DNA from: Bugula neritina
Lineage: Eukaryota > Animalia > Bryozoa
Assembly: GCA_964035545.1 (NCBI GenBank)
Contig: OZ037766.1
Coordinates: forward strand, 15,304,722-15,368,721
Length of the DNA stretch: 64,000 nt
Reading direction: 5' to 3'
Numbering within the stretch: the first letter of the stretch is position 1; each line of letters begins with the position of its first letter. A program made the position numbers and the translations under genes. Below are positions 19,424 to 60,788 of the stretch, piece after piece. Under the pieces are notes generated by a model. It did no database searches. It saw only the letters and a list, made by a program, of their open reading frames with translations, and was not told where the DNA came from.

Positions 19424-21858
19424 ATAAGTGGCGCCACGTGGATAGCTGATTTCACAATGTTTATATTGATTGCTAGCGAGAGCAACTGGAACGTCCCATA
19501 GCCCAAAAATGCTTTCGATAGATATTGTTCTAGTTTTGTCAAGTTGTAGAAATGACTTGATGCAGCATAAAGTTTGGGATTCCTAAAAGATATGGTTTGG
19601 CGTTTCAAATTTGGGAATGAGGGTGTTCAGAGTGCTGACGATGTGTATACAAACATTGCATGCAATGACCCCTTACTTTGCGCTGCATTTAAAGATCATC
19701 AAAAATTTTGCATGGAGATGGACACATCATAACAAAGTCGAAAGCCACTGCAAGTGGAAAGTACTTACTTACTTTCAAAATAAATGTATGACTGTACTGT
19801 TACTGCGACAACTATCGATTTTAATTTAAGTTTTAGTTTGAGCTATTAATATAATATAGACTTTCCTGAGATTATTTATTGTTTGTACCTTGCTTTATTC
19901 TTCTTTTTTGGATTTTTATTTAGTTTTGGCCTATGGCTATGCCTATGGCTATAGTTAATAAGTTATAACGAAAATTATAAGTTGCAGTTATTTTATGTTA
20001 ATTACAGTTACTAATGGTAACATAAAATTAATGAGTTGCTCTATTTGGATCAGCTTCAACGGAGTTCAACTTCAACTTATCTATTATCATGATAATCACT
20101 TTGAGTCTGTTCTACTACAAATCTAAGCTAAAGTAAAAGTAAAACTACAAGTACATTAGTGATCAATGATGAGATGATCAAAGTGATAATGGTAATTGCG
20201 AAGATAATTTCATAAGATTGAGTAATACTTATAATGAGTTATACTTGTACTTGTAATATTACTAGCAGTGATACTAATTCAGTAATTGTGATTACAAGTG
20301 AAGAGTGTAATGTTATTTTTTAGAATTTCCTTTTATTATATCATTACGATTAAGATAACAATTTTTACATTGCTGGGTAAATCAATATGAACATGCAGTA
20401 TGATTATCGAAAAGAATTTCGATTTTGATGCTTTTATAAACAGAAATAGTAGATTTTTAAATGTATGATAATCTAATTACTACCGCTTGATAATCATAAT
20501 TATAGTAGTTTACTGGACAGATCAAATGTGTACTACTAAAAGCAAAGTTGCCTGGATAACATACAGCTTTTTACCAGTCACTTATTCATTGCTGCCACTT
20601 GTAATGCTAATAAAAAGAGTAAGCTAAACTTGGTCACCTGGTAGGCTGAAAAATTGTGCTTGTTTATCAATCAATGATTTACTTAAGCTAAACTATGAAT
20701 TGGCTTTGAGAAGCACTTTTCTACCATGCAGGTGTATAGCAGCTCGCAGAATATGGTACTGAATGAATACTACATATTTTCCTGGCAAGATATACACATA
20801 TTTGAGAATTAACAATGGCTGATTAACATAACAGTTGTAGTACACACTTAGTTGTAATTTCTTGATATTTAAGTACATGGATACTGCATAAACATGTAAT
20901 AACCGGCTTAAATATATGGCGACTAGCAATAACTGATAATGTTATTGACAAAGCCAACAAGGTCAAATTTTTATGTAGCTGTTAAAATAATTGCTCAAGA
21001 TTGTAGAGATATGTATGTCCTTTATTATTTATCAAGATTCCAACACCAATTACATTCATAAGTTGAGAACTATGTTAGTTTTGGTTTTATTAGCCAAATT
21101 GATTGGTATTACTCTGTGCCTTTATATACCAGTCTTATAATACAGCTTTGGCTAAAAGCGACTAAAGTGTATTATATTATCCTGTTCTTGACATTCATAC
21201 GAATAAATTAAAAATGTATTTCCCAATGTATAGCAACTTTTCTTTGCTTATAAGCAAGCATTTTTGCATTTATCCTGCCGTTAGAATAATGAATTTCATT
21301 AAGTACCGCAACTGTTCATTTTGTTTGGGGTTTGTTTCACCATTCAAGTAACATAATAGATGAAAAAATGTTTTATTATGTATGAAAATGATAGTTATAT
21401 TTTTTTAGCTATTTTATTTTAGTTGTGTGTAATTATATATATGTATATAAGTAAATAGAAGCTATGCAATTCACATAGACTGATTACAACTACTGCAAAG
21501 TATCTTCTAAACTCACACTTTTGTTAAAGTGCTGGCAAATAACATAATATGTTTTTTTACAAATGATGTTTTGTGTATTTTAGTAAATGTTAGCTCAGGA
21601 CCGAACAACAAATGTTTGCATTGAAGGTAAGTTTTGTTGTTTTGTAACTTGTTTCAAGAAAGGTTTAGGGTCTTGGAAAAACTGACCCATGTTTTACACT
21701 TTATTTTTGCTGGCCATGCATTTAATTCACTATCTTTAAATAAGATATGTAAAACATGATGATTAATATGCTTATTCTGAATTTTTGGATCCGTACTTTT
21801 AGAACTGTAAAAGTGATCATTCTTGTTACATTTGTTTAGATTTACTCTATTTGAGACT

Positions 21859-24800
21859 ATGGGCATTACGGAGTCGGCCCTTCCTAAGCAGCTAAAAGAT
21901 GACAACAAATCTCTAGATTTAAGCAGGGATGTTTCACACAAAGCATTTATTAAGGTAGGTCTTTAGTCTAGAATATTTACCTCAACACCTTTACTACCAC
22001 TTATTCACGCTTCAAGCCCTGGTACCTGTGCACATGGCATATCAGTTCAGTATAGTTCATGTAGCTCAACTAATTATTTTATGCACAACCTAGACTCATT
22101 TTTTAGTTTTCTTTTTGTAGAGCTTTAACACCGCAAAGCAGTTATTTTTATATCATTTTCTATTAACGTAAACGTAAAATTTACTGACTCTAAGAAAACT
22201 AATTAGTAAATAAGTTTGTTTTCAAAGCTGATTTTAGCTGAGTGTTATTGCTTTAAAATATAAAATACATATCAAGGTGGTGCCTGCACTGTATTGAACC
22301 ATTTGGTTGTATTTTAGCATGCAGAAGGTGAAATAAATGGCAACTGCTTGTGGGAGTTTCCTTGGGAGCTACGAGATAGTATAACACTGTATGAAAAGAT
22401 CAATGCTTCGTTTAACCACTTGACCTCTGTGCCAGAAGAGATTGCTTTGAGGGTGCCTCACTTGACGCAACTTAAACTTAGTTATAATAAGATCTCTGCA
22501 CTTCCGCATACATTTATTCTGTTCTTTCATTTGAAGGAATTGGACTTAGATCATAATGACTTTGTCACTTTTCCTATATCCATCACAAAGTTGCTCACTC
22601 TAGAAAAGTTGAATCTGTCAGATAATAGTATTGCAGAACTACCTGAGCAAGTAGGGGAGCTGCAATCTCTACAGAGACTCAACCTCAGTCACAACAGGTT
22701 ACACAAGCTGCCTCCAAAGTTGGCAATGTGCCCGCTAAAAGTGATACTCTTATATGGCAATCGACTGGAAACTCCATCTCAAAGAGTGTGTGATCAAGGT
22801 ATAGCTGCTAAATCGCTCCATTGTTACAATGTAGAATATTATAACTAATATAATGTGCTATTTTAAAGAATTGAGAATAATCATTAGTTTTATTGTATTT
22901 ATTTCCTGACTCAAATTTTAAAAATAACCTGCAGCTTCAATTAGGTACAGAAAGATACTTTTTGCGGAACAATATTTATATAGCAGGCCATCATTGCACA
23001 GAATTCGTAGGGAGCACAACTTCTTCATATAGTTTATGTTGGGTAGACAACTACAATAATAATTATGTACCTGCTTTATTTTTTATCATTTCCAATTATC
23101 TTATAGTTGTCTAAGCATTTCGATTACAAAGTAGTGGTTGAAAACCAATCATAAAATACCAATTTTGTTTATTGAATGATTTTTGAGCGGGAATTATTCA
23201 CTATCTTCCCATGCATCAAAGTCAATTATGGTATCCTTCAATGATGGACATCAAGGGGCAATTGAATTAGCAGCTATGGTTTTACAGTGTCTTTGATACA
23301 TGAAGACACATGAATTGTATATTAGTAAATTTTGAACTAAATATTTATCATTCAAATCACTTGTGATGTGTTTAACCCTTAAACTGAAAATGGCACAAGC
23401 CAGCTACGTTGCAGTTTTGTATCATTTGAAAATCTCTATTCAAGCAGATCAGTCTTGTAACACACCTGGTACATTTGTTTACCTGCAGCTAGAATGTACT
23501 AGCATCTATCAGATGATTCTATCTTCAACATGTTTGATATGATTTGATATGCACTCACACAGGCAGCAGGGCATCTCTAGAAGCTCTGCATGCTATGAAC
23601 ACATCTGTTTATGCATCACAAGTTGAGAGGCTGTTGGAGTTTCCCAGGATACGAGGCTCGCACATCATGATATCTACTCACAACCCCAGTTCTATGCACT
23701 TTCAGTTCACACAACTTCAAATCTTTCCTGACAGAGTGAAAACTCCCCTTATCCCTCCAGTTGGCTCCACATGGCTGGAAGCTGTAGATCTTAGTGACAG
23801 AATAGTTGGTAGGTGCTGATTCTGTTGTATTTTGCTAGCTTTCACTTAAAAACATCTGAACTGGCTGTTGACTGTTGATAAATTGTAACTCTTATGTACT
23901 GCTAATTTATTCTTTTTTAGGATTTTAAAGTTTTACAGAGATTTTATGGTTTGTTGGTTTTGATGATTAGTTTAAGTAGCACTAATCAGTACTAACACCT
24001 ATGTTTTGTTTTGATATTTTTATTGCTTGGAGAGCTTCTAGTTGCTGCCTGACTATCAATTAGTTTGCACTCAATAGTGACGGTTATTAAAGTTATCCTT
24101 TGCCAACAGTTGCCATTTCTTTGCTCCTGTCATTGTTTTCAAATTTACTTTCATGGCTCTTTAGCAAAATGTTTTAATATCTTGTGTTGAATGACAAATT
24201 GTAGACTTTATATTTTCTATGCTGATATTATAGAGTTCTTTAAGATATAATCTATAGTTGTATCAAACCATAATTAGTATTTGTATATCGGTAGATAGGC
24301 ATTTCGTAGTTTGAAACTATTTATATATGGGAGTTGTGTCATCTTTGCTATTGTTACCTCGAAGAGTTGACAACTTCTCTGTTCAATATTGGTTCTTGTT
24401 ATTTCAGGCCTCATCTATGGTGCAGCTATCGGTGATGCTTTGTCTTTTGCAACTGAAGGGCTGACAGAAGATGAGTGCCACTTTCATTACGATCCTCTCA
24501 CCTTATCCTATGATGATATTATTAAAGACAGCTACAGGAGTCACTGGAAGAAAGGTGACTGGGGCGTCTGCTTCGATCAGATGGTGAATATTTGGTTTAC
24601 TGAGGTAGTAGCTATAACTATTCAGTATACCATGTGGAATCAACGCTCATAAGTACTATAGCAACGTGATGTTTTGCCCCAATTATTTATTGTTGTTTTG
24701 GAATTGGAAGTCATTTTCAAATATTTATCCGTGTTATACGTTCTTCCTACTCCACAAATGTTGTTTAAGCATTTTTGTTCTATATTTACTGGTTACATAA

Positions 24801-27800
24801 GCTTGGAGATGGTGGTTTGAGCCATAAAAATAAAGGAAGTTGGGGTGATAAATCATTACTTATAGTTTAGTTGGCAAATTAGTGACTTGATAAAGAGAAA
24901 GACTATTTCTTTCCCTAGATCTATCTAACTATTCTCTCACTCACTGTATTCCACCCACCTTTTAATTCCCCAGGTGTTCTCTTGTTGGCAAAAATATAAA
25001 TATGGCTGCGTATAAATCAAACGACGTAAATAATGCCCACGTCAAATTCGTTGCCATGCAAATGTTCTGAAAGGAATTTTAAACAGAAATCCAAATGTAC
25101 AATTCTACATAAATTATATAACAAATGAAATTTATGCTAAATATCCCATAGAATAAACTTTAATTGATAATTCACATGCATGTTCTTTATAAGATACATC
25201 AATAGTACATCTTTGAAAACTTGGTATGAAGGTGTGGACAGAGAAAAAGTAATATTTTCTGAATTTTATTTGGAGTTCATTTACCAAATTCAATCAACTT
25301 GGCTACTGCTTAATTTCTTTGAAACTGAAAATTTTTTAGACAAATTTTTCACAATTACTATTTATGAATAAAATGAAAACTCCAGCAAACTGGCGAAACT
25401 TTAATATATTTATTCTTGAATGGTAAGTAGAACAAAAACAATGCTTTTTATTTCATAATTTCCAGTCTCTCCCAGTCATACTCTGCATTGTGACACAACT
25501 GGCCTGATATGAATGTTATTTGCATCAACGACTAGTTTGTCCTACTTGACTCAGATTTACTTTCCACTTCCAACATGGCCGCATGTGCATCACTCTAAAG
25601 TGAATATGATTAATGTGAGTGTTACTGGAAGGTACACCCAGTCACAAGATATCTCAAGACTATCCAACTCTTACTAAATCTATGCACATATGTCTGTGAT
25701 GTTGCCAATCTCTTCTATGTTTGGCTTGCTCTCTGTTGTTCTTTTCCTGACCTCCTAGCCTGTCATTCTGATGGCAACAGCCCATAGGTTAAGTTCAAGT
25801 CTTTATTAAACTTGTTATCATCAGTAACTTGCTGCACTGTAGAATAATATTTTTATTGGTGATGTTAGCCAATTCATATTATTGGCCAATCGAATTGACT
25901 ATCTGCTGTCATATAATTTAGTTGAGAGACTTGGTGAAACCTCTTCCACTATTAACCTGAATAAGGTGAAAATATTTTCATGGAAACACTTCCGAGTTGT
26001 TGATCAACAAAACATTTATACTTTGTTATTTGCTAGTTCAACATATGTCAACAACTACCATTACGTATGTGCAAGATATTATCTACAAGACAAGAGAGAA
26101 ATAGCTTTTTTAACAGAATAATGTGGCGTAAAGCTTTTATGATTCCAAGCTCCTCTGCTTCTTATTTTCTTTTGCATTTCCAACATCTCGGAATATTTCA
26201 AAGATGAATTACGCTTTTCTATTTCTTCAGCTGTTTATATCACCATTAAACCTCTTGTGTAGACTGTAGACCTGCATCATTTATATTAACTTAAACTTGA
26301 TAGGACAGTTAGTAGGATGTTATATCTAAAATGGCCGGTTAATATTCTGCTGAATTGCAGGTTGTCGTACTGGACTGTCTGCTGCAATGGGCTGGAGTTT
26401 TGGATGAGTTGGAGTTTGCCAAGAGGTTGCATATGTGGTGCTCAAATGGATTCCCTGAAATTGGAGATAAACATGGCTTTCAAGTCTCAGACACTATTCA
26501 ACAGGTTATGATTGATCACCTGCTTAGAGTTTATAGAAACTGACACATCATCATTCATCACCCTATATCAGTATCATCTTGCTACACTTAGTTTTTGACC
26601 TGAATATGTTATAATATTTTTTATAACTGTCTATAATCCTCTTCATGCATGATCACCTATCTCAGTGCTGGTCCAATTTACCACTGCTGTGGACTTGTGA
26701 CCCAGTGTGTTATGGTACTCTTTGGTTTATGTTGTAAACAAGTCTAGTAATAGCTGGTAATGTTTGCTCACTCAACCAGTCAGTTAGAGGCCTGTGGGCT
26801 CATTGTCCATCAATCCCTACTACTCTGTTTGCACTGTTTAAAACTGTCATTTACGAAAAATTAATTTCAATTTTTGAATTATTTGCTACTGCAGAGGTTT
26901 TTGGCAAATGTTTTCACAAAAAAATGATGAAATATTAATTCATCCTAGGACTAACGTTGTCTAATCAGCTTTGGCTACCAGTTTGTTTTGATTGATGAGT
27001 TGAATTGCTGACAAACTTGTGCATATAAACTGATTGAATTAAAGTGACTTTATTAGCCTGCAACTACTGAATATGGGAATAATATTTAGGAGCAGCAGTG
27101 GAGAAATTGAGAATGTCTAAGTTCTTTAATTTCTTGTCAAGTTTTTCTCATGAGAACATAACTTCTTTTGCTACTTTTCTAATCTAGAATACAGGTTTCT
27201 CTCACTTTCTCCATTCCTGCACCTACCTCAATTTTCTTTGTTCTTGCTCTTTTAAATAGTGCTGGTTTTGAAAGGTTCGTGTGAATTCACCAATTTCACA
27301 ATCTTATATTTGGCTTCAGCCATCTTAGCATGCCTCTAATGTATGCATCTCATACTAAATATATCAAATTATTAATACTTATAGTTGTATAGCTGTGGTA
27401 AGAGAGGAAGGGATTTTTTTTTATTAAATCTATCCGTATAGGTATTTTGGTAAAGTTGGATGCAATATGTTGAATAAACCAGGAATGAAGATATTATTTG
27501 TGAAATTTAAACCTTGAAAATATGTTAGATCAGGCAGTTTAAGATGTCAAATCATATTGGGTTTCTCTGCAACAGGTGTTTTACTAGTCTGAAATGTATT
27601 TAGCAATTATTGCCATAGGCTGCTATTATACACTAAAGTCTGCAGGGTCTACAGTTACCCTATCGATACATATTATCTGTGTTGTATCTAATTATATTGT
27701 AAGATCTTGCACTATGTCACATACACATACATACATAATATGTGTAGCTTGGAGAAGCTTCACTACACCGTCTCACACTCTGCTCTTGTTGGCTCTCTTT

Positions 27801-30800
27801 CTAATCTGCCTGTAACTAAGTGAGGGTGGATAATATCAGAAACCAGTTGCATGTTGCAATGTCCATCCGTACATTCAGGTTTGCATGTTAGGGAGGCATG
27901 GTGGAACAATATGAGACATATAGCCTATAGCGTAATTAGAACTTTGTTGAAGAATTCATGCAGCTTTCTTGTGCGGTGACTAAACTTGGTAACTCTTCAG
28001 CTCTGCTTAGCTGTATTACATCATCAAATCTGTATAAATGGAAGTATCATGTAATTATGAATTGATTGGGTGGATTAAAAAATGTATACAAATTATGGCC
28101 TGATAGTGTCATAGTTACCAGATAACAAACTCTTGCTAACTTCTCATTTCCCTACATGTTGATGACAAATGATACTCCTGTGAATGCCTTCTAGAGTACA
28201 GCTGTACACCGTTTATCTTAAGTTATCAGTTGGTTTGATTAATGACTGTATAAAAATAGGAATGTAAGGGTAGCTGATGATGAAATTAATGATTTAGTTC
28301 TATTCACACTGCCACTGCAACAATATACTATTTCCATACCAACTCAATATTTTATGCAAATGAATGCAAATTTCAATTCAGTTGACTGAACTGTAGTCTC
28401 AGTGTTGGTAGCTCTTATCCATAACCTGACCCACAAAGCATACACTAGTGGTGGTTGAGCTTTTAGGTTCAGATGAAGCCCAACTAGTGCTATGTCTTAG
28501 ATAATAAGCAGTGCAGCTTAGAGCATATGTGTACCAACGCTTTTCTATTATTGACGTTGAATTCTGGCTCTACATAAGTTTCCGAGCGAAGGTCAAAGTA
28601 AATCAAAATGATTGCTTTTGGAAATATGTGCTGGTTCATTAATTTTAGCTTGCACTGCACTGGTTTTTGTTCTGTAAAATTCAGCTTTTTCTGCAAGAAA
28701 TAAACCCAATCATGGTATAAATAGGAAAGTAGCATTTGGTTCTACACATATATGAGTTAGGTGCAGTAATGAAGTAATGAGAATGGCCTGCGCTCTAGAT
28801 TAGAAATGTTGCAAAAAAACTTCAACCTGCACCCCAAATAAACCAAAATCTATTAAGGAAGCTCAGGCTATCAACATTTCTCTACTACTGCACCTACATG
28901 ATATATATCCAGGCTCAAAGTGGGCAGTACTTAGAACCAAAGAGCTAATTGATTGTTTTATTCATCAGGTTACTATGAAGAAATGTTGCTCGGTATAAAT
29001 TGTGCTGAATTTTAGCCATCAGTTCGTAATTCTTGGTTGAATGTCAGACTCTAAAGTCTAAAAGAACTGCTTTAATCGCTGGTTTAAGTGGGTAGACATC
29101 TTTCATGCTACACCAACTACAAAGGCGTTCAAAATGTTTTTTCAAAGTATCAATTATTTGCTAATTATTAATCAGTTGATTGAATTTATGTTTGCAATCA
29201 ATATTCTACATTGTATCAAGTTTTGTAAAAAAAAACTTATTTCGCTGTCATCTTTCAAAATTTGTCCCTTTTTGAGAAAAATAAGTTTTATTAACACTAA
29301 TTTCATGAGTTTAAGAGTCTGGACTGGATAAATTAAGTGGAATACTTCAAAGTGGCTTCAACAGAATTCAGATGTATCTTATAAAGGATGAATCCATATT
29401 TATAGTCATATTCTAAGTCACATCTTTCCATGAACACTGTAATAAAGGGATGGTTTGAGGCCTGGCCACACTATCGTGAGAATCACGCGATTTCTTGTGA
29501 TTCTCACTATCTAAAGCCCAGGCCTTTAGTTGGCACTTGTTACATTACTAAATACCTAATTTCCAAACACTTCAGCCAATCAGAGGTGTGCTGGTTGTAG
29601 AAAGCTTAGTTTTCTTTATCCAGTCTTCTGTATTTGCAAAACATACTTTTTGTACCACGTCCAACTTTCCTAAAGTTTGATGGTCAGAAAACAAACGTGG
29701 TTTAGTGTAGACTTAGGTTTATTAAAGTTTCAATGTCTCACAAACATTAAAAACGGATCTGAATGAGTTTCGACCTTGTATTAATGACATCCTAATAATT
29801 ATATGCAACTTCATCAAGTTTAATTTTTTAATTTTACTTGACTAGTTACTAATAAAGTTCATCCTAAACCTTCATACGCTAGCATTAACCTATTTTTGAA
29901 CCCATAATGGAAGTATTAAAGTTCAAATGTGTATTACCCAGCATGTGAATGTTACAAAAAATTATATTGTTGTTTTTTGTTGTATAGTTTTTTTATTTGT
30001 TTTCCTAGATTTTATAATATATTTTTTTGAGAAAGTGAGTGTAGCTCAGTGTGATCTAATATGGTGCTTGTGTTTCCCTGTGCCATCAACTTGCCAGCTA
30101 TAATAAACATGTGTCAGGTGGCTAAAATGGGCTATGACTTTCTTGTCAACCATTTTGGCAAATCATCTCAAATCAGAGCTTCCTTTTTTCATTTCCACTG
30201 CTTGAACAGCACTGAATAGCAGCTAATACAAGTATTTTGTTCAGACCTGCCAGTCTAAGTATCAAATCTGAATGCTGTAATTTTATAAATTTTGTTTTAT
30301 CAGAGTTTTTTGTTTTGTTTCTATTCATAAGTTTTTGCTCTACTTTCTCTTTTCTGGAAGCAACAGTTGCCTAAATCTTTTCTTGAGAGATTTTTAATCA
30401 ACAGGATACGATAACACTACGTATTCAGTAAAAATAATATATTTTTTGTGTATTTTGTAGGTCACAAGTGACCCAGATTTCACTGTTGACCCACATAGAG
30501 TGGCTGCAAGCAACCCTGTGACTCACTCTGATGACTCTGCCTTAGTTAGGGCAATAGTGATAGGTGCTCTTCCTACTCTACACCCATCAATGTCCCATCA
30601 AAACAGTATTTTTGTGACAAATCCTGTTGTACAAGCAGGATTTGTCAGGCCAACTGACAAATGTCTAGTGGTTCCTGGAAGAGAATGACAAGATGTCTGA
30701 TAAGCTGAATACAGTATTTGCTTGCTGGCTGTGGGGAAATAGTTTACTTATGATAGCTCAATATTATGTGTTGCTTAGTAAAAATTAGTTGATGTTTTCT

Positions 30801-33800
30801 ACTATCTTCTGTATGCTACAAGTTTATAGTTCTGTAGTCTCCAGTGTAGTAACTCCTAGTTATGTGCAGCAGATGGTATCAAGTCCAGCACTTGAACAAG
30901 GAAAGCTTGAGGGCCAAGGGTTGTGGTTATGCAAGCAACTTGGCTTCCTCCATTGAGGGAGGGTGTCAACAGTAACAGCCATCTTGCTGGTGGTTCATTA
31001 GCCATTCTCCTAGCAGTTGTTTGTGCCAAAATTAACCAGTCCAGTAGCCCAGGGCATTAAAGAAAGGAATAATATAAGTTTACATAACAAGCTTGCAAAC
31101 TGAACATATAATGAGTTATATCAAACAATATTGGGCAGCTAAGTGTAGTCTCTATACTTGATTTTCTGGCTATTTTTGAAGCACACTTGGCCATATTTGC
31201 AAAGTATCAATAGCTGTGGTTAAGCCATGCCTTTAGCCAATTTAATGAATGTGACACATTTATATCTAGGTCAACTCCTTATTTTTGTATGAGGAAAATT
31301 TTGTTATATAAATTGGTAAATTTGCAAAATTACATTTCTACTAATCAGTACAAGAGTTGTATATTTTTAGGGATTCCATTTTTCCATAACCTAGAAGAAG
31401 TGATGGACAACTCCACAAGAATCTGTAGAACTACTCATAGTGATGACATTTGTACTGCTGCATCTGCACTGTTGTCAGGTGTTGTCTCCCTCTTACTGCA
31501 GGTAAGAGGTCACATCCGAAGTATCAGTTAGTACATAGCCCCTGTAGATTACCATCAGACAGATAGTTCTCTAAAGTCCCTGTATTATCAGAGTAATAAC
31601 AGCCACTCAAAGTTACACCAGCTTCTGATCTTTATAAAAGATACTTTATTTATACAAGACCTAGTTGAAGGTTGCCCTCCAAGTAAACTTTCCATGTGGA
31701 AGTCCTCCAGATTTTGGCATCTTTGATTAACAGGATGTGATGTAGATATATTTTTGCCATAGTAGCTGAAGCTAGTATGCGATGCATTAATTTCTCCCTT
31801 GTTTACCAAATATACATCCCACAGTAAATTTCTGATCCTGTTGGAATGTTACCGATGAAATGGTTAGGGGTATAATACACTGTATGGGGACATAAGCACA
31901 AGCAAAGCACATCCTATGTTTCATTCGTATGCTATCATAGCCAATAGCCTTTAAATACCATCAAAATGTGAAAAGCTTCTCTGTAAATGTTGCTTATGTT
32001 TAGTGATGTCACAGGTAGCTGTTTGCACAGCAGGGTAACCAATATCACCCCATCACTTGGCTATATTACAGATTAAGGTTATTTGTTTGACCAAGGAAAT
32101 TGTCTGCACTAAGATGTGATGTGGTGATTGCAGAGTGCACAGGGTGAATAATAGCCCTTATGCTTATTTTAATGTATTCTGCCTGTTCAATCGTTTACTA
32201 AAAGTTGTTATGGTTATGGTTGGCAAGCTCTTGGGTTAAAAATTAAGGTTATTATTAAAAGATAGGATAGAGGTAGTTGAGGGGAGATTAGTGGTGATTT
32301 GCTGGGTTAATTGTGGTGTTGAAACTTGGCTCTCCTCTGACATCTCGTCACTCACTAGTTGAGCTGTTTCACTAGTCAGTTTCATTCCATGCTAACCATT
32401 CTGTCTTCTCTAAATTCTTGTTCACATTACTAGACATGTTTTCATTTATGTATAGCATGATGTCGGTGAAATACCTTGTAGTGTAGTGCTTAGTGACATA
32501 GTTCACTCATCTCATTCCAAAGCTTAGTTTAAGAAAAGTGAGTTGAAATGCATTAAATATCTTTTTTCTGTGTTCTCGGAATGTATTGAGATCAGTAAAC
32601 AAACTTGTGGATTTAGGGAAAGCTAGCAAGGTTCCATCTCTCTATGGATGTCACTCTGTGGTTGTATTGATTGATATGAACCTCTGGCACTCTACATCCT
32701 TTTTGCTGTTGTTTTAGTTGAAGCTAGTCCTTACATGTAACACTAGTATTTTTACATTATGTCATACTTTAATATTACATAGGATATGAATTGTTGTAGG
32801 CTAATGCATGATAACTATTTTCGAAAGTGTGACTATAAACTCAAGTTATTTCACTTTAGGAACACAAACCAAATTAAATGTTTCCTTGCTATAAATTAGA
32901 CCATACAATAAGCATAGTCAGCTTTACTGGGAGGAATATTAAACTTCTATCTATTATTGTTCTATCTATCAGTGCTCCATCTGTATAGTTGCTATCTATT
33001 AGTATTATATCTATCAAGATGCTATCTATTAGATTCTACCACACACAGCATCGCTGCCATTCTGCCCACCACTGCATGCCCACCACTGCATGCCCACCAC
33101 TTTTAGGCTAGCTGTAAACTGTGGCTCCAGCACAGGTATCAAGCTCCTACTTCCATGGTTTTTACTAATTCCACAGAATATAGTTCGAAAACATATTGGC
33201 CACCCTGAGTTTCAACCATTTAGTATTGACTATATTGAAAGTTGTTCATCAGGAAATATATGCATCTATTACTTGAGGACTGCTAGTATAGTTGAGGGCA
33301 TGCCCTTGCCTAAACTGTAGATTGACCTGTAAGTGGATCTATTACATAACATTGTTGACATCATCACTATCTAAGCTAGAATGGCTGGCTATTCCATTTA
33401 GTTGGGCTTTATTTTGCCATGTAAGAGAATATTTTCTACTAATTAGCTTTTGAAAATTATGTTGTTTTAAAGGGTGACTTTGATGCCAAGGATCCATCAT
33501 CACTTATTAAAACATCTTTTGCTGTGGCTCAGAAGTATTTACCCCATCAGAAAGATAAAGACTACTTTGAAAAGCAACTCAACCTGGAGTTATCAAAGTG
33601 GGTATATTGTATATTTGTGGTGAATATGTTTTTAATTTCTTTCAAGTGGATTTTGTGCTTTGCCATTATGCCTTGGAAGCATTATATGGTGGGGATTGAG
33701 GGCTTAAAATGGACTCAGAACTAAGATAATTTTTTTTCAGGCCAGGCATTTCCACCAAAAAAAGTCCTTAATTAGGCAAATTCTTTGCAGAATTGAGAAA

Positions 33801-36800
33801 ACTTGACTGTGGAGCCTATTGCCAACCTACCTACCTTACCCAATTATTTACTTTTCATGCTGTCTATCTCTGTTGCCACATCTACCAACTACCAACTTCT
33901 ACTAGCTGCTAGTGCTTGGTATTCAGTACATGTTGAGTTTGCAGCTGCATTCAAACTGTTTTGTGTTTAAAGGTGGAATGGCGGAATGTGCTCGGCACTC
34001 TTAGCATAGCATCATTGTTTGTGGGATGAGACTTCGTGGAAATCTCTAATATCCTAGGAGCTTTGAAGCACCTCAAAAACTCTTCATCTATGTTTTATGT
34101 GGCTCATAAATAGATTTATAAAATAAACAAGCTATAGCTGATTGCTGAACTCTTCTTGCAAGGCAACCCAATAGCCCTTCTGCTGCTGATTCGCCTTCTT
34201 CTACTTTTTCTCGCAGCTCTTTTAAGTAAAGCTACTTTTTATGGTTTTCATTGTGTCTCTGAAAGCATATGTGTTATCTGCTGTCAAAATGTATTTTGTT
34301 TTGACTTTGCTTGATTCAAATTATAATTTCACTTAGAAAACTGAAGACCTCAACTGCATGTTCCTTACTTTATTTAAAGTGTGCATTGCCAATGTGTTGC
34401 CTTTTAGGCTCTCAAAATCTCCGCAATGTCATGTGTCTGCACTCAGACAATTCTACCAGCATGTTCTCTTTTCAATCATCAATTGTTTGAAAAGGAGTAA
34501 AGAGTATCTAAACTTTTGGACTCAAAGCAGACTCTTTAGTATAACATACTGTTTATTAGAACAACTGATGAAATGTCAACTGCATATATAACTTTGCAGT
34601 AGCCTACAAAGATCAAAGTTTCCTATCGGTGGGGGAAGAGTTCTCCCCCTTGATTAATATCCAATACACCTTGTTTCAACATTCTCTGTCCATGAATACA
34701 GGGTCTCAGTCCACTACTAGCAGTCAGTTTAGTTTCCTCCATTTTCTCCTCCTCACCTGTCAATTGCACCTACGCAGTCGCCCAAATAAAGCAAGTCATG
34801 GAATAATTTGCAAGTTTTTGGTGACTTCAACTAGCACATGTCATACCCTCCAGCATTAATATATTCTCTACTCCAAGTTTTGAAGAGAATAAATGCGTCA
34901 TTAGTTGACAGCACTCAACATTATGCAACACAGGATACCTCAATATTATTATGTCTACTAGAGGTTGTTGGCACTGGCAGAGCTTCTACTTACATGTTCT
35001 TAGCTGTAGGTGTAATGATTCAGCTTACCCTCCCTGTGGTCTGACATAATGATGACTTACATTGTAGGTGACATCATCTGCTCCCAGTGATGTCACTAAT
35101 GTTATGGCCACCTGCCCTCTTTACTTTTACAAGCCATTTCATGCTTTTCAACTAAGAATTTGTTTATCTGTAGTTGTTTTGCATTTGTGAACTTTTGCAC
35201 TGCGTTAAATAGTTTGGCTCTAATTTTCATTCCATTTTTAAGGGTTACTCAATATTCGTTAGTAAATAAATATATTCACTACTCACTTTAAGTTTTAACC
35301 TACTTTACACCATCTCTTCTGGTTATACAGAAGGCATACTGTAGCAGTAGGTACACTATAGCAGTATGTGTGGTATAAATCATGCAGTATTTTGCTGTTA
35401 AAGGAATCACTCAACCTTACATATATACAATGGTTATACATAGTATGATTTATTTTAAAGTTTCATCACCTAGTGGCTTACTAGCAGATTAGACTAATCG
35501 CTCATCTAGTCAAGTGTTACATCATTGTTTATCAAAATATGTTGTTATTGTAGAATTAATATAACTCACTTGCAGAATTATAGATTACCTTGTAGTATAA
35601 GTACTATTATAACACACATACTGTTACAGGGGACTTTTAGCTAAAAGAAATGATTGTATGAAATCGCTGATTACGGCCTTACAGACTCTACATTGGTTCA
35701 AAGACTTCAGGTAAAGCCTCTGTTTTACAATGCCAGTAAATGAGTTTATCTGTAAAAATGTATGTAATACAAAAATTTATGTAATACAAACAATATAGGT
35801 GATACAAACAATATAGGTAATGCAAAGAATGTAGGTAGTGCAAGCAATATAGGTAATACAAACAATGTAGGTGATACAAACAATATAATTGATACAAACA
35901 ATATAGGTGATACAAAATGGTAAAACCAACCCTTGAACATACAAACTATTAAAAACATTATTTCAATGAAGCTCTCATGTTTCCATGGCTCTTTAGAATA
36001 AATCTCCCATTTCGAAATAGGGGTATGAAACTGAAGATAATGTATGGGCACTGCAATAGCACTAGTGATTCACAGTGTCTGAACCTGGTTATTAGTTGAA
36101 CTCTTCTCTGTTGCTGGTTGTGGCTGAGGTTTGTGATTGAGTTGGTATATCCATGTTTTCAGTACATAACCCCCATCACTTAGACTACCTGTCTAGTTAC
36201 ACAGCTAACAATTACTGGTGTTGAAGTTATTCAGATACATGTTTACTAGTGCAGGTGGCTCATCTTATTCACTACTTCTGTCGTTTGATGCAAACTCTTT
36301 AAAAGAGTATGTTTTCACTTCATTTATTCTATATGCAAAATTCACTATGTAGCCCTACAGCAATGCCCATATAAGGAAACATTTTAGCAGACTGTTTTGA
36401 CAGGTCTTATCAGTGTATGTTTAACTCCTACTTTGTTTTTATTAGTGATTTCTAAAGAAATTGCTCTCAGCTGTGATACATATCTTGTTGCTAAATTTAA
36501 ACCTTCTAATATATTCCCTCACCAAGTCTGTCATCAGCTTTCTATCCTGTGCTGTATATATAATCCTCATCTTCAGGGTAGAATGTAAGCATTCAATATC
36601 CTATGGTACAACTACTAATACATGTAACTACACAGAACTTAACTTTTCTGTTATCTTTACCCTCACGTGTGTTTATTTTGGATATTCTCTCCTTGTTAGA
36701 TTAGTTCTGTTGGACTATACAGAACTAACCTTTATATTTTAATACATCTTCAGAGATAAGGCTAGTAGCAGTCAACTGGCTATCAACTTGCATACAGAAG

Positions 36801-39750
36801 AGTAGAGTTAATAATAAATTTAACCCAAATTGACAAGCTGTCTTCTATTTTGTTTGTCCTTTGCTCAAAACACTTGTAATGATTGACATGTTTTTAACTA
36901 GTTTGATTCTTTTTGGATTCCTTCTGGAGTCAAACAACTGTTTGCTTAAATTTAGACTTTTCTGTTGACCTTATTAATTTCTGGAAGAGGTTTCAACAGT
37001 TTTTGAAACCTGATAGGATATCTCCTGCATCAGCTTTCAGCTAGATTTGCAGTATGATCAGTTGCCCTGATTCCCAAATAAGATATCTAAATTTAATTTT
37101 CCTTGAACTGTATGTCTCTGGGAAGGGTGTAATTGCCTGTCCCCATTTAACTTAAGCATTATCTCATGAATAAATAAACTACACATTATATACTAAGTAA
37201 GTGTTGCTAATTAAAGTTTTCACTTTAAAAGCATTAATACGGCAAAAAGTAAAACCTGATAATTTTCTAAAAGAATGCTCAGCCTACGCTAAGTTAGTTG
37301 TTTCTATATTTAGGCAAGAATGGTGGTGCTGTAGCGGGCAACTAGCATTATTATTTATTGAACGGGCTAAATCCATCCAATATAATACATTAATACATTC
37401 ATGAGCTATTTTTAAATTATATTATAGTTTCTATTGGAAAGCTATCTATTGTTGAGTAGAAGTTGTGCTAAGCAGGATATTTTGGCCATCAGTTTTTACT
37501 TTAGAAAGAACTTTTTTGCATCATTTTTATGAAGAAATAGTTAAATATGCTATATTTTAGGAGCTTATTATGCCAAAATCTGCCATGGTCATTTGTGGTT
37601 TTGGTGTTGATCACTTTTTGCTTTAAGTCTGTCACCAGCTTCCAAAATATGCACAGGATTTCCATCAGGGTTGAATGAAGAATAATGTTATTTTTGGCAT
37701 TTATCTGCTAGCTTTTAACCTACTAGCTAGTAAGACACCGAAACCAAATTATTTTAAGTTTACTTGTGGGTATATGGTGTAGTAAAAGCATGGAAATTTA
37801 TTAAAAGATAGCAATCTGCTAAATACTGGTGGTTCTTTTTTACACCCCTCTTGTTTATTTTTCCTGTTTCAATGTAGCCCATTAAAAGCATGAACTAATT
37901 CAATCTTTACAAGCCAACTTTGAGCAGTTTTTGCTTTTATCAAAGTTAAATGTTGTATAACATGAATTTAGGCTAGTATGTTTGTTACCCAAAATGCACT
38001 CGTTAGGTTGGAGTTGTGAAGGTGTTATTCGTAGGCTCAAATTACTGCATAGTTGCATTATGATAGCCAAGATGTCAACTATTCTGGCATTGCGCTGAAC
38101 TTGTATCATCTGTTATTTGGCATTTCATGTGGCCAACTTGATGAAGATGTTCAACCTTTATTCCCTCAGCAAGTCTAACTTTAAAGCTCCGTTTTTTAAC
38201 TCACGTGACAAACAAACGTGACATGCCCACATAAAAACCCTTACTCTCTTCCATATAGCTAAGTTACTGATCGGTTTTTATGTGTAAGCAGATTTTTATG
38301 GTGAGATATCTTGCTGTACGTAGTTGTTACTAAACCTTGCTAATTTACTAATATCTAACTTCGGAGTTATTCTTGAAAGCAAAATGTCCTCATCACTGTC
38401 TATACATAAACCACACATGCAGATGTAAAATGTCCAAGTACTAATTATAATCACATGGGTCTACCTCTAGCTACAGCCTCAATCCTTTGTTTCTGTATAT
38501 TATAATTTGGTTACTGGTTTTTCTCTCAAGGGTCAAGTTGAATGCTTGAGGTTAAAATTTGTATGGGGCTATGGCTAACCACATAACTGTTGGTTAGCCA
38601 TAGAAGTTGATCTGTCCTTCACCTTTCTCATATTAGTTGTTCAACTAGCTAATGATTCAATGACCTAAGGTCGGCTCACAAGCCTAAGTCAGGGAAAATT
38701 GGAAAGGCTTTTTGAAAGGAGTTGAGTTTCATTGCAATTCAAAGTTGAAACTGATGCCATCCAAAAAATGATGGCAATATATCAAGTGTTGTTGAGGTCG
38801 TTGACCTCAGTGCCAGAGGGCAAACTGTGTTATTTTTGTGTGTTGCAAATGCAATGAATATCCACAAAGTGTGATTATTTCCCATGCCAACAATTTGTCA
38901 CCATTTGAAAGACAGTGGGGAAATCGGCTATGTATATAAAGCAGAAATTTGATGCCAAAATGTTGATTTTTTGCTTCCATGTCAATACCCTGCTTCCTTT
39001 TTCTAGATTATACAACTTCATTTCGCTGGCCAGTCTTCACCAATAAGAGCTCATTGGTCAGCCTAGGTTTTAATAGCATTGGGTGTGCAACTATTGGCTA
39101 ACTACAAAATCCCTTAACTCCAGTTTCAAGTAAATTTTGTTAATTTTCTGCTTCTAGCTTAAAATGATAAAGCAGTTGTTTTTTCTTACCAACTGTTAGC
39201 ACAAAGTTTTTGACAGTTGCCTAAGTTACTAGAGTGAACTAGAATTCTAGAAACTCTGCTCATGGTGTCAGTCCGCTTATCTTTCAACTATTAATTACAT
39301 AGCTGTTTCATTTTCAATTTCTTTGATTTGTTTTGGGAGTAACTCAAAAAACTTAATAACAAAGTTGTTAATTTTCTACTTATGCATATATTAAAAAGCT
39401 GGTTCGTAAAAGAAGAAATAAAAATATGGCTGTCTTTTCAACTCAACCTACTATTCTTTTTTTTACAAATCCCCATAGTTATAAGCACCAGTGTTCTAGT
39501 GCTTATATTGGAAGGGGTTATATTATGCAGGGCCTGATTGGTACTTCTCTGTTGTAGATCTACTTTGCTGAAGATCGTCATGAAAGGAGGAGATTGCAAG
39601 GTGGCTGCTACTATTACAGGTGCTCTTCATGGTGCTTTAACTGGTTACAGCGCTCTTCCTAAGCCTTGGGTAACACAGTTACTTCCAAACCAGACCAAAT
39701 GGCTAAATGCTAAAGTAAATCATCTTCTAGATCTGATGGCAATTCCCTAG
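21859..39750 (+). CDS. Leucine-rich repeat + ADP-ribosylglycohydrolase (ARH/DraG/crystallin J1 fold) protein, about 591 aa, N-myristoylation motif, probable pseudoenzyme
   Basis: Phase-consistent exons: 21859-21954, 22318-22798, 23563-23808, 24408-24583, 26361-26504, 30461-30563, 31371-31501, 33473-33597, 35630-35710, 39558-39750 (TAG); probable UTR exon ending at the donor near 21626. Starts MGITES. Six LxxLxLxxNxL repeats. ARH motifs DRIVGLIYGAAIGDAL..ATE, FAKRLHMW..GFPEIGD, ICRTTH, IVMKGGD..ITGALHGALTGYSALPKPW. Confidence 0.88.
29458..29525. repeat. Small palindromic MITE remnant
   Basis: AGGCCTGG...CCAGGCCT ends with internal GTGAGAATCAC/GTGATTCTCAC stem. Confidence 0.55.
33950..35150 (-). 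mobile_element. Heavily decayed non-LTR retrotransposon 3' part, possibly HERO/R2-like with restriction-like endonuclease
   Basis: Reverse-strand remnants TLPPP, MLVELS and AVEV in the order expected for the zinc knuckle/REL region; many stops, so the family call is tentative. Confidence 0.35.
35760..35916. repeat. Intronic 18-bp minisatellite (about 8 copies, TAGGTGATACAAACAATA-like)
   Basis: Direct tandem units; source of the spurious LYCLYH ORFs. Confidence 0.85.
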
Positions 39751-41137
39751 ACTTCTTTATTAGGTCCATTCTACTAATTATTGTTAGCTAATGTGTGTTG
39801 TGTCAACTATATACCTAACATTGTATTTCTATCATTATAATATACTAGCGTTATTTTCTGTAGTATAAACTAATTATAGCCAAATACATGTTTTTTTGTT
39901 TTATTTTTGTGTTTTGTATTTCAAAATATATGACATGTAGTATAAAATAGATCATGAGATACATGTAATTTATGATTATGGCTTCTAGTTTTTTAATGTT
40001 AAAACTTATAAACACTCACAGATTTATAATAAATGCTTTTAAAGACTAATTTGCGCTGTATCTACTTCATCAGTTTACCATAGGAAATGTTCTCATTCAT
40101 TCCACCGAGCACATTTGCATTGTAAATTCTATGATCGTTATAGCTACTGCAACAGAACTATAAACCATAGCGTTATTCGGTTGTTAAATATGAACACTTC
40201 CTGCCTTCTGCAACTTACTAGTCTATATAAGTTTGTATCATTGCAGCCATGTATTGAATTGCCCATCTGGAGCTTTAGGTCAAGGTCAGAAGTTGTTTTC
40301 TCCTTTTAATACTTCACTTCAAAACAAATTATAGCTCACCATTCCCTTGACCGATTTATTGCTTAGCTGTGGTCAATTGCTTTCAAGGCACTCAAAGATA
40401 AATTACCATTTTTTGTTTTTGTCACAAAATAATGTTGAAGTACACAGTGCATTATATTCACCAGAACTTAGTGATGTATAATTGTAGTGATTGCCTGCTA
40501 GTCATCTGCTCTGTAATGAATTTGAATTGAGTGAAAAATAGTCTTGAGATCAACATGTTTGGCACTGCTTGAAAATAAGATGGTGGATAACAATTAATGA
40601 CCATTGTTGTTACTTTTGTGGCCACTTGAATAGAATAATTGCGTGATTTTATAACCACATTGGTGCACTTTTTATCTCTTGGTTTACAGAATGAGTGTAC
40701 AAGCCTGTCTAGCTAATAATGTAACAGTACCTGCATAATTATGAACATAACAATACATACTATACACCGTTATATTATTTTGATGACAGGAAAGATCTAT
40801 TGTAGAGCACCAAGCTCACCACTATATATGCAAGTTTATCAGATGACATTAGTGGACCATAAAATCAACTACATAGTAGTCATCAAGTTGCAAGCAAAGC
40901 TATGTGTGCAAAGTCAAATGTCAATGATTAAGTAAGCAAATTTCACTATTTGGACTACTAACATTATGTTAACCTTTGCATAAATACCAAAAGTTCTCCC
41001 AAAACAGCTGGGAAGCAGATCATAAACTGTCAGTGTCAAATACATTCAAGATTCAGTCATATTTACACAAATATAATATTTTACAGGTTACATAAATGTC
41101 CAATTCTAATGGTTGTATGTACATCTGGTTAATTAGT

Positions 41138-42565
41138 TCATATGTTGTGGCCCATGTGATGGTGCATATAGTTCCATCTATATTTGGGCACTGTAAGATC
41201 TAGTGGAGCTTCAGCAGAAGCTGGTAGACTTTTGTTAATGGTGAGGTTATAGCCATGTGTGGGCTGCTGATATTCATCTATTATACTCATAGCAGACTGT
41301 GGAGGACTCATGTAAAATCTATGTGTATCTTGAACAAAGTTGATTTGTTGTTGGTAGGTATGAAAAGCAGAGTTTATTCCAGTATGCATAGATTTGGGCC
41401 CTGGCAATAACGATGACTGCATGCGCATGGATGTTGCTGCTGCAACATTCATTCCACTGCTTGAAGGGTGGTAGAACTTTGACTGGGGTGGAGAGAAGAT
41501 ACTGGTAAAGTTTGGGTGGTATGAGTTTGTAACGGCTGCGATTTCCTTTGGAGTGGGTGGCTTTGGGGGCTCAACTGGCGCAGCAGGAGGAATTGGGTCA
41601 TCTTTCTTTCGGTTGAAGAAAATACAAGAATCTTTAGCGTTGTCATTCTCAGATGAGAACCTCCTCTTTTGTATTATTCGTGAAACTTCTCGAATACTTC
41701 CTTTTAGAGCGAAGCTGCACACCTTATTGTCTGGTGTCTCTGGGCAATCTAAACTCACCGAGTGCTTATAGACAGAAGACTGTTTCATTGCTGGAGGTAC
41801 TTTCTGCTTTTTCTTGCTACTATGTTTAGCATGAGTCTTCTTGGAGCTAGTATGATGCTCTTTGACCTTTTTCTCGACCTTTTTCTCAACTTTTTTCTCA
41901 ACCTTTTTTTCTTTGGTCGACACAGCTGTGGTTGCCTTCTTTGCATCATTCTCGACAACTGAAATGTGTATCAGCTCAGCTTCAATCTCTGTTTGCTCCA
42001 AACTCATCTTATGAAACAAATTAATGTGATCCATAAGTTTCCCACGCTTTCGGAATGACATGTCGCACCAAAAACATCTATACCTTGAAATTTTTATTGA
42101 TGTTGCCGATACTTGGATAGTTTTTTTTGTTTCAGGAAGTACAACTTCACTTTTTCCATCTTTCGCTGCTACGGCATGGATCAGGTTATTAACAACTTTG
42201 GTCTTCTGAGCATCTAATGTGTGATCTTGCAGTTGCTCTTTTTGAATTTCATCTATAAGCTTATCCTTAGAGTCCTTCTCTAGTCTTATAATTTTAACCT
42301 CTGGTTCAGTCCCTGCTTCTTTATGGTCGGTTTCCATATGCCTAACCAATTTCTTTCGAGTGCGGCAGTCCAATTTACATTCAGGGCATTGTGCGGCTGT
42401 ATTAACACTTTGTGCAGCCTTTTTTGCTTCAAACGAATTTTCCTCACTTCGATCAATTTTCATCTGAGCATCCTCCACAAATGCTGAATGGCTTTCTCGC
42501 ATATGCTTCACCATTTTACCAGACGTTGGAAAACGCTGGTCACATTTAATACACTTGTGAGTCAT
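41138..42565 (-). CDS. C2H2 zinc-finger protein (3 dispersed fingers, KKVE repeats, C-terminal PLDLT motif), about 475 aa
   Basis: Single coding exon after an acceptor at 42598-42599; first ATG 42565 (MTHKC). Fingers CIKC..HMRESH, CPEC..HMETDH, CFWC..HINLFH. Upstream donor GTAAGT at 43547 suggests a non-coding exon 1. Confidence 0.88.
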   Translation of the reverse strand: MTHKCIKCDQRFPTSGKMVKHMRESHSAFVEDAQMKIDRSEENSFEAKKAAQSVNTAAQCPECKLDCRTRKKLVRHMETDHKEAGTEPEVKIIRLEKDSKDKLIDEIQKEQLQDHTLDAQKTKVVNNLIHAVAAKDGKSEVVLPETKKTIQVSATSIKISRYRCFWCDMSFRKRGKLMDHINLFHKMSLEQTEIEAELIHISVVENDAKKATTAVSTKEKKVEKKVEKKVEKKVKEHHTSSKKTHAKHSSKKKQKVPPAMKQSSVYKHSVSLDCPETPDNKVCSFALKGSIREVSRIIQKRRFSSENDNAKDSCIFFNRKKDDPIPPAAPVEPPKPPTPKEIAAVTNSYHPNFTSIFSPPQSKFYHPSSSGMNVAAATSMRMQSSLLPGPKSMHTGINSAFHTYQQQINFVQDTHRFYMSPPQSAMSIIDEYQQPTHGYNLTINKSLPASAEAPLDLTVPKYRWNYMHHHMGHNI

Positions 42566-42693
42566 CTTGTGGCTGGAGTGTAGCTCCAAGATTCAATCTG
42601 AAAGAGAAACTATGAAGTATGATATTCATATACAACATGATGGAGCAAAAACATCATTCAAATGATTATAAATAATACATCTCACTTTGCCTA

Positions 42694-60420: not shown

Positions 60421-60788
60421 GAGATGTATCGTTCATAGCTTCCCATAGCCATACCAAAATTTCTGACAACAAACGGAACAGCTGTAAGTATTGTAATCGA
60501 TACTTGAAAGATTCTGGCAATAGTGGTTGGTAGAGTTATAATTTGTTTGTTCAACTCACAGCTGAATGCCAGAGAGAAAGCAGAGCCGGTTACGATGTCG
60601 CATATCCCAATGTTGATTACTGTCCAGAAATATGCATTTCTTTTAGACTTGTCTAACTTCTTCAGAAAAATTAGATTAAGGATGTTAAATATAACACTAA
60701 AAATGTTGAAATATGACAAAACTGCCGATTCAGTAGATTCTACACAAAAATCAGTTATTTCATCACACAGAACACTAGTATTTTCCAT
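60421..60788 (-). pseudogene. 5' half (N-terminus, TM1-TM3, ERY motif) of the same GPCR
   Basis: MENTS..FNILNL (TM1)..IGICD (TM2)..SYERYIS. Reconstructed allele is 930 nt, 309 aa, ERYISICFPY, no stops. Confidence 0.88.

Follow-up and report, generated by a model that had tools for sequence, protein, structure and literature searches.

A leucine-rich repeat protein of Bugula neritina with a predicted myristoylation site and an anciently degenerate ADP-ribosylhydrolase domain

ADP-ribosylhydrolases (ARHs) are two-metal enzymes, and every characterized member has a binuclear center, according to the accessible part of PMC7050489. In ARH3, one metal is held by T76, D77, D78, and D316 and the other by D314, D316, and T317, and activity requires these residues (available sections of PMC8141533). 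A member of the fold that has departed from this chemistry is the vertebrate cardiac pseudoenzyme ADPRHL1, in which three of the four aspartates and the ligand residues have been lost and the cleft is still needed for function (excerpts of PMC7390403 and PMC9738213). We analyzed 64,000 nucleotides of the bryozoan Bugula neritina (contig OZ037766.1, positions 15,304,722 to 15,368,721; this whole stretch is referred to as the window). The window carries a gene for a protein in which an MGITES start is followed by six leucine-rich repeats (LRRs) and an ARH domain with a broken metal site. Judged by comparison with its homologs, this LRR-ARH pseudoenzyme is old and not a product of local decay, and it may well act as a membrane scaffold.

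The exon chain was deduced from intron-skipping joints in contigs of sequencing runs, of which X1 to X8 are presumed to be RNA and X9 served as an unspliced control. Joints in contigs of four presumed-RNA runs from four studies fixed ten coding exons between 21859 and 39750 on the plus strand; all nine coding introns are of the GT..AG type, and the spliced exons form a single open frame of 591 amino acids with its stop at 39748 to 39750. The joints that connect the LRR exon to the linker exon (22798/23563) and the linker exon to the first ARH exon (23808/24408) were each found in all four runs, and one contig each from X3 and X5 contained the LRR and linker exons in continuous sequence. Since both connecting joints occur in 4/4 runs, the LRRs and the ARH domain belong to one transcript, the individual contigs being partial and none full-length, and a pair of separate genes is ruled out. 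X9 covers the introns between 30300 and 39900, yet it has none of the four joints present there in X2, X3, and X7. The codons of the broken TDD motif lie within 24428 to 24582, and one RNA contig matches this segment with no differences; the degeneration of the active site is therefore not an assembly error. An upstream noncoding exon places an in-frame TGA (21622 to 21624) before the ATG, identifying Met1-Gly2 as the true start. A reading as a pseudogene was rejected. The 23 allele differences listed fall in exons 1 to 3 only, with no ARH exon covered; they comprise 12 synonymous and 10 nonsynonymous codons, versus 185 and 606 sites, and are compatible with purifying selection, to which we give little weight.

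A preliminary description, made from the DNA sequence alone, had proposed an MGITES start, six LRRs plus a cap, and a complete ARH domain in an intact frame. The spliced 591-residue product agrees with it on each point, the RNA joints confirm that the two parts form a single gene, and every motif that had been quoted is present in the window where it had been placed. At the 5' end of the transcript (21582 to 21584), at a good splice acceptor, one X2 contig and one X5 contig carry two different loose ends of 22 to 23 bases, which are absent from the 64-kb window at up to three mismatches; possible explanations are trans-spliced leaders, exons far upstream, and allelic divergence. Short intronic repeats at about 27130 to 27230 and about 29460 show very high contig depth and are probably high-copy elements.

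Both parts of the protein matched Pfam above the cut-offs, as LRR_8 on exon 2 (66.8 bits; cut-off, 27) and as ADP_ribosyl_GH (PF03747) on three separate ARH exons (26.5 to 28.8 bits each; cut-off, 26.2). Equivalent metal ligands were identified from the motifs, guided by HMMER alignments between the subfamily and DraG and Tri1. In place of the first metal motif, [TS]DD, the window protein has G327-V328-C329, and in place of the second, DxD[TS], it has D540-C-K542-V543, with the bridging Asp replaced by Lys. The Glu-flap glutamate, E291, which only 20 of the 65 eumetazoan rows retain, is present, and so are D540, the leading Asp of DxDT, and the GDW...DQ frame of the subfamily (W326, D331, and Q332). 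Two of the three second-metal ligands are gone: the equivalents of ARH3 D316 and T317 are Lys and Val, and that of D314 is D540. Also missing are the adenine-stacking Tyr, both loop glycines, and the Asn-Gly pair, so that of the five residues of the GxG loop, the Asn-Gly pair, and the His, only His438 is left. The Tyr column, mapped to DraG Tyr212, holds Asp509 beside a deletion, where the local alignment is uncertain. The TDD, DxDT, and NG..MR motifs had been described as degenerate beforehand; they indeed read GVC, DCKV, and DS..VR, with GAAIGDAL and TH retained.

The same site is broken throughout the cnidarians and bilaterians examined. Our eumetazoan alignment comprised 65 rows from these groups, 63 of them complete at the active-site columns; P0065 was too short to include, and P0067 served as an outgroup only. 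None of the 63 complete rows keeps all seven metal and catalytic residues (E/TDD/DxD[TS]), whereas the set is intact in 6/6 complete LRR-ARH rows of sponges and protists and in 89 of 95 complete stand-alone rows. Of the four aspartates, 13 eumetazoan rows retain none, 45 retain one, and 5 retain two, and the bridging Asp survives in none of 14 eumetazoan lineage groups (73 rows). Decay restricted to bryozoans is thus ruled out. The preliminary description had raised the question of whether the loss is conserved and had named retention of TDD/DxDT by orthologs as a sign of lineage-specific decay; the motifs are retained only in sponges and protists, where they date the loss, and all of the complete eumetazoan rows are broken.

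An IQ-TREE phylogeny of 57 chosen rows, from which 31 motif columns had been removed, supported an animal LRR-ARH clade (100/99), the cnidarians plus bilaterians (92/92), and the bilaterians (97/95). The intact sponge-type rows P0031, P0172, and P0167, the last close to Corticium, fell outside the eumetazoan clade. Because the eumetazoans form one clade with the intact sponge rows outside it, the loss of catalysis is old and shared, and comparison of the sequences places the loss of the metal center near the cnidarian-bilaterian ancestor. The replacement residues at the metal site differ between cnidarians and bilaterians, and parallel erosion after a first shared loss is possible. The LRR fusion and the MG start are older than the catalytic loss, and the same architecture occurs with an intact active site in sponges and protists. 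Active-looking stand-alone relatives occur in the same animals (e.g., Lingula P0118) but also in sponges, and redundancy alone therefore cannot explain the loss. The trees nest the ARH domain in a eukaryotic MJ1187/Tri1-like WTDD[TS]DQ subfamily. As to the relationship between the animal and protist fusions, a quick tree groups most LRR-ARH rows (Shimodaira-Hasegawa-like approximate likelihood ratio test, 97), but a careful tree does not.

The fold was assessed with an AlphaFold2 model of the 587-residue ortholog from the bryozoan Watersipora subatra (P0001), computed from a 61-sequence alignment (mean predicted local distance difference test score, 85.3; predicted template modeling score, 0.76), in which confidence is low only at the N terminus and in parts of the linker. 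In P0001, PF03747 scored 130.3 bits over model positions 1 to 286 of 287. Foldseek and VIA-align ranked MJ1187 (Z, 34.9), DraG (33.2), Tri1 (33.0), and ARH3 (32.4) at the top, and superposition on MJ1187 (1t5j) gave a root mean square deviation of 2.1 over 291 aligned residues of an all-helical ARH fold. The claim that the ARH fold has been retained is thereby upheld, on the model of the ortholog. Over 59 full-length eumetazoan rows, mean conservation was 0.67 in the LRRs and in the second half of the linker and 0.63 to 0.65 in the ARH domain outside one variable part. Four residues, W343, L350, E425, and R432, are fixed in all 14 groups and are rare or absent in the enzymes.

To see how the ADP-ribose pocket fared relative to the metal site, retention was scored over the 14 groups at 69 columns, namely those in which 90% or more of 110 intact domains share the residue; the partial or odd rows P0034, P0061, P0064, P0066, P0194, P0256, and P0281 were placed in no group. 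Six residues made up the pocket set: G374, G376, N406, G407, H438, and the Tyr counterpart of DraG Tyr212. Mean retention was 0.39 for the metal columns (n = 6) and 0.42 for the pocket columns (n = 6), compared to 0.70 for the other conserved columns (n = 57); the window protein keeps 2 of 6, 1 of 6, and 37 of 57, respectively. S376 and D405 were gained in bilaterians and E425 in all groups, and none of the three occurs in any of the 110 intact domains. Helices 377 to 384 and 407 to 415 of the model are immediately preceded by S376 and D405/D406, at positions where the enzymes have Gly and Asn-Gly, and we infer that these may be helix-capping residues that replaced the phosphate-binding glycines. 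The pocket residues vary by lineage. Cnidarians retain G374, N406, G407, R411, H438, and Tyr while having lost the metal site, including all three second-metal ligands, and would be the best candidates for readers of ADP-ribose; molluscs retain D540, N406, G407, R411, and H438 and have His or Tyr at the stacking site; and erosion is stronger in arthropod-like rows. The proposal that the dead domain of the window protein reads ADP-ribose was not borne out, its pocket having eroded together with the metal site and two of the three second-metal ligands being lost.

At the other end of the protein, six LRR cores with the pattern LxxLxLxxNxL begin near residues 57, 81, 104, 127, 150, and 172 and are flanked by caps, and a linker helix is seen at 234 to 246 in the Watersipora model. 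The window protein is predicted to be N-myristoylated at Gly2, and Ser6 is a preferred residue in predicted myristoylomes (PMC1885993, in the part available). Among the LRR-ARH relatives, 62 of 72 start with MG, in line with a conserved Gly2, versus 12 of 92 stand-alone ARH proteins; several of the remainder are truncated sequences or carry MG slightly further along. Since 17 of 24 noneumetazoan LRR-ARH rows also begin with MG, the motif predates the loss of catalysis.

From these sequences, we lean toward a reading in which the window protein would be a myristoylated, catalytically dead LRR-pseudo-ARH scaffold that binds a conserved protein partner at membranes, not ADP-ribose. Its ancestor would have been an ADP-ribosylhydrolase from the MJ1187/Tri1-like subfamily of eukaryotes that was tethered to membranes and targeted by its LRRs, and sponges and several protists apparently still have an intact form; after the metal center went, the nucleotide pocket would have been remodeled in bilaterians. 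N-myristoyltransferase would attach myristate to Gly2, bringing about membrane association, and the partner would be held, through contacts retained from the hydrolase or newly acquired, by the LRR face together with conserved ARH surfaces (W343 to L356, E425, R432, the C-terminal helix, and the TPLxPP linker). This partner would plausibly be the old substrate, regulated or localized without chemistry.

A number of observations weigh against the scaffold reading. The structural model is not that of the window's own protein; the assignments of the Gly loop, Asn-Gly, and His to the pocket follow the general picture of the DraG and ARH3 structures, and only that of the Tyr is mapped to a specific residue, DraG Tyr212; and the retention tests were one-sided (metal, p = 0.016; pocket, p = 0.032), with small samples and nonindependent columns. 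Only 48 of the 62 MG starts fit a PROSITE-type myristoylation pattern, and neither a cysteine nor a clear basic patch was seen in the window protein as a second membrane signal. Furthermore, the pocket partly survives in many lineages, since His438, Arg411, and Asn406 are often kept in eumetazoans (retention of 0.98, 0.77, and 0.67) and the stacking-Tyr column is His, Tyr, or Phe in 59 of 65 rows. It is conceivable, if on the whole unlikely, that the protein is instead a membrane-tethered ADP-ribose reader, in which the dead domain binds ADP-ribosylated targets and the LRRs relay the signal; this would suit the cnidarian orthologs better than the bryozoan protein. ARH3 D77A is inactive and binds ADP-ribose 23-fold more tightly than the wild type (0.06 versus 1.42 uM), so that loss of TDD alone can make a trap, but D314A and metal-free ARH3 bind it 44- to 60-fold more weakly (both from the accessible text of PMC8141533), and of the three second-metal residues that are needed, the last two are Lys and Val here and all three are lost in cnidarians. 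The missing Tyr, loop glycines, and Asn-Gly of the window protein, and the variation of the pocket among lineages, also argue against a reader. A broader variant, which we rate no higher, is the stepwise conversion, at the base of the eumetazoans, of a myristoylated, LRR-targeted eraser of early eukaryotes that would be active in protists and sponges, a dead reader in cnidarians, and a remodeled reader or scaffold in bilaterians; if true, it would provide the first natural ARH-fold reader and point to an unrecognized membrane ADP-ribosylation pathway in invertebrates.

The ARH domain might also be a stabilizing passenger that is retained for folding while the LRRs and the anchor do the work. 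The dead domains do diverge somewhat faster than their active paralogs, another point against the scaffold (identity between phyla of 0.45 to 0.50 versus 0.54 to 0.64), and erosion is strong in the fast-evolving rows P0218, P0227, P0230, P0244, and P0270; however, a domain that remains nearly full length across cnidarians and bilaterians, is conserved close to the level of the LRRs, and has four residues fixed in all 14 groups but rare or absent in the enzymes makes a mere passenger improbable. We think it slightly less probable still that the protein remains an enzyme with changed chemistry, using one metal, no metal, or another substrate. Glu291 and Asp540 are retained, and Lys occupies the bridging-Asp position in both bryozoan-type proteins and in P0189, but the lineages share no alternative set of residues (E, R, A, D, or C at position 291 and D, H, or Y at position 540), and a binuclear center is what the characterized ARH enzymes use (PMC7050489, as available). 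A decoy or guard receptor against ADP-ribosylating toxins, a role put forward in the preliminary description, seems the most doubtful. The nearest solved relatives include toxin immunity hydrolases (6dre and 8za7), and intact orthologs come from organisms that feed on bacteria. Against this, the protein has no signaling domain, there is about one match per named species (two partial Elysia marginata models apart), and the concave face of the LRRs is not hypervariable, its x5 positions being conserved at 0.76 and the face overall at 0.58, similar to the 0.63 of other noncore positions. The last two observations fit a fixed cellular partner, as the scaffold reading supposes, better than pathogen sensing.

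The family was delineated by successive searches. A query with exon 4 gave two matches among 18 candidates, P0001 and P0002, and the ARH part of P0001 retrieved 66 proteins among 7,992 scored candidates, 62 of which carry LRRs plus PF03747. Their named sources include the sponge Sycon, corals and Nematostella, Lingula, many molluscs, echinoderms, and amphioxus and, among arthropods, spiders, ticks, a centipede, and a dragonfly; the Saccoglossus match is a model that is short at the N terminus and has no LRRs. On the tree, P0001 is the sister of the window protein (support, 100/99; 62% identity), and identity between the two is 0.67 over the LRRs and 0.60 over the ARH part. The Sycon ARH domain found 379 relatives, 120 of which were listed; the matches listed are eukaryote-wide and mostly stand-alone hydrolases with the motifs WTDD[TS]DQ, NG..MR, and GD.D[TS]N. 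A full-length profile search added LRR-ARH proteins of Balamuthia, Pelomyxa, Anaeramoeba, Protostelium, and Diphylleia but was crowded by long LRR proteins; of 152 newly fetched proteins, 40 had an ARH domain, and 33 of these were of sufficient length for alignment. Among the named matches, none is from a vertebrate, tunicate, nematode, or dipteran, which is weak evidence of absence since many matches are nameless; with no vertebrate member among the named matches, medical relevance is limited. The ESM Atlas feature search listed generic LRR clusters (0.79 to 0.80) and stand-alone ARH clusters (0.86), none with the LRR-ARH architecture.

Database labels of the members read "uncharacterized" or are transferred names, and one JGI label gives the domain pair (P0282). 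The architecture is not described in the literature searched, including the accessible parts of PMC1314882, PMC3482391, and PMC8120803, a search that covered few subscription papers and in which supplements of family surveys could list it. The MG-LRR-ARH pseudo-ARH family thus appears to be undescribed, matching the earlier expectation of uncharacterized homologs and no characterized protein. P0225, P0260, P0095, P0143, P0239, P0310, P0278, P0031, and P0172, from Balamuthia, Pelomyxa, Anaeramoeba, Protostelium, Diphylleia, and sponges, are intact LRR-ARH proteins, most with an MG start; such proteins of amoebae, other protists, and sponges are apparently uncharacterized membrane-targeted hydrolases and suggest membrane-targeted erasing of ADP-ribose in amoebae and sponges. 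The fast-evolving rows P0197, P0218, P0227, P0230, P0244, and P0270 cluster with arthropod sequences, and their pocket residues are almost all gone; they retain MG near the start, the LRRs, and D405 or a neighboring Asp. Tandem ARH-ARH proteins of the same subfamily, P0069 and P0073 (Saccoglossus) and P0071 and P0072 (unionid mussels), have a degenerate first domain and an intact second one, which indicates that pseudo-ARH domains arose more than once.

Coordinates of the LRR-ARH gene in the window (aa, amino acids; UTR, untranslated region)
Feature	Position	Strand	Content and evidence
Noncoding 5' exon	21584..21626	+	Source of the in-frame TGA; joint 21624->21845 in X1 and X2
Coding exon 1 (exon from 21840)	21859..21954	+	aa 1-32; MGxxxS predicted N-myristoylation motif, start of LRR N-cap
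Gly2 and Ser6 codons	21862-21864 (Gly2), 21874-21876 (Ser6)	+	In coding exon 1
Coding exon 2	22318..22798	+	aa 33-192; N-cap, six LRRs, C-cap; Pfam LRR_8/LRR_1/LRR_4, joints, repeat register
Coding exon 3	23563..23808	+	aa 193-274; end of LRR cap and conserved linker (FPRxRG-like motif, predicted helix, TPLxPP)
Coding exon 4	24408..24583	+	aa 275-333; ARH helix 1 (GAAIGDAL), Glu291 retained, TDD -> GVC (24563-24571); PF03747
Coding exon 5	26361..26504	+	aa 334-381; conserved WxGVxDELEFAKRL surface; ancestral GxGxT loop -> QVSDT (Gln374, Ser376)
Coding exon 6	30461..30563	+	aa 382-415; ancestral NG..MR -> DS..VR (Asp405 gained, Asn406 -> Asp)
Coding exon 7	31371..31501	+	aa 416-459; TH motif retained (His438); Glu425 gained in eumetazoans; PF03747
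Coding exon 8	33473..33597	+	aa 460-500; variable helical part of ARH domain; joints
Coding exon 9	35630..35710	+	aa 501-527; adenine-stacking Tyr site (DraG Tyr212) is Asp509, adjoining a short deletion; joints
Coding exon 10	39558..39750	+	aa 528-591 and stop; DxDT -> DCKV (39592-39603); conserved C-terminal helix; PF03747
3' UTR	39751..40210 (at least)	+	AATAAA at 40028; X2 contig 39556-40210

Elsewhere in the window, the minus strand at 52161 to 58022 carries an open 1,953-amino-acid frame of a BEL/Pao long terminal repeat retrotransposon (Peptidase_A17, DUF1759, DUF5641, zinc knuckle, reverse transcriptase, and integrase zinc domain). A C2H2 zinc finger protein at 41138 to 42592 (minus strand) is convergent with the LRR-ARH gene and ends in PLDLT, which resembles a CtBP-binding motif. 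A 440-amino-acid frame at 5603 to 6925 (minus strand), without a Pfam match, is rich in 5-residue Ala/Glu/Val repeats, and further long frames lie near it at 1344 to 1769, 2216 to 2596, and 5080 to 5436. Hydrophobic frames at 50586 to 51203 and 60351 to 60797 (both minus strand) resemble, by eye, pieces of seven-transmembrane receptors and had no Pfam match at an E value of 0.001.

The closest solved sequences and folds to the window protein are MJ1187 (1t5j), Tri1 (6dre), and DraG (2woc), together with the eukaryotic "Tri1-like" WTDD[TS]DQ hydrolases; these keep E/TDD/DxDT and are mostly single-domain proteins, and the window protein differs from them in both respects. P0001 falls far below the NCBIfam cut-offs for Tri1 (NF041672; 43.8 of 490 bits) and DraG (TIGR02662; 36.9 of 337 bits), and the literature searched gave no substrate for the eukaryotic subfamily. 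Human ARH3 and ARH1 have the same fold (Z, 32.4 and about 28), with corresponding motif positions, but are active binuclear Mg enzymes without LRRs with only about 15% identity. For the LRR part, the best solved matches are scaffolds of the SHOC2/RSU1 type (SHOC2 Z, 24.3); the similarity is of a generic LRR kind, and these proteins have no ARH domain.

Dead or possibly dead ARH folds are nevertheless known. ArhL of the Chlamydomonas Orf2971/Ycf2-FtsHi motor has an ARH fold (Z, 31.3 to 31.4) with partly conserved catalytic residues and a possibly structural role, but it is a chloroplast stromal subunit without LRRs, and its likeness to the window protein is seen at the level of the fold (available text of bioRxiv 10.1101/2024.09.02.610899). 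ARH-like folds are also seen as subunits of chloroplast import motor and trypanosome mitoribosome assembly complexes (PDB 8xks_Q, 8xqw_G, 6sga_FP, and 9hny_FP). ADPRHL1 (ARH2) provides the nearer parallel, having kept the ARH fold through long conservation with changed metal aspartates and changed adenine- and ribose-binding residues, in a remodeled cleft to which a noncatalytic role is ascribed (PMC7390403 and PMC9738213, as excerpted). ADPRHL1 and, as a possibility, ArhL are precedents that support the pseudoenzyme reading.

The bryozoan protein and its relatives are, however, of another subfamily than ADPRHL1, which is a single-domain protein close to ARH1 and limited to vertebrate muscle. 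They add six LRRs and an MG start, and sponges and protists have orthologs that are built in the same way and look active. Distinct from vertebrate ADPRHL1, the family persists in cnidarians, molluscs, brachiopods, bryozoans, arthropods, echinoderms, hemichordates, and amphioxus, and the natural series from sponge through Nematostella and mollusc or sea urchin to bryozoan makes the birth of a pseudoenzyme directly testable. In the fold comparison, MJ1187, DraG, and ARH3 all score above ARH1, and the trees contained no ARH1 or ARH2 sequence; by analogy, the pseudo-ARH domain described here is best read as a counterpart of ADPRHL1 that probably had a separate origin.

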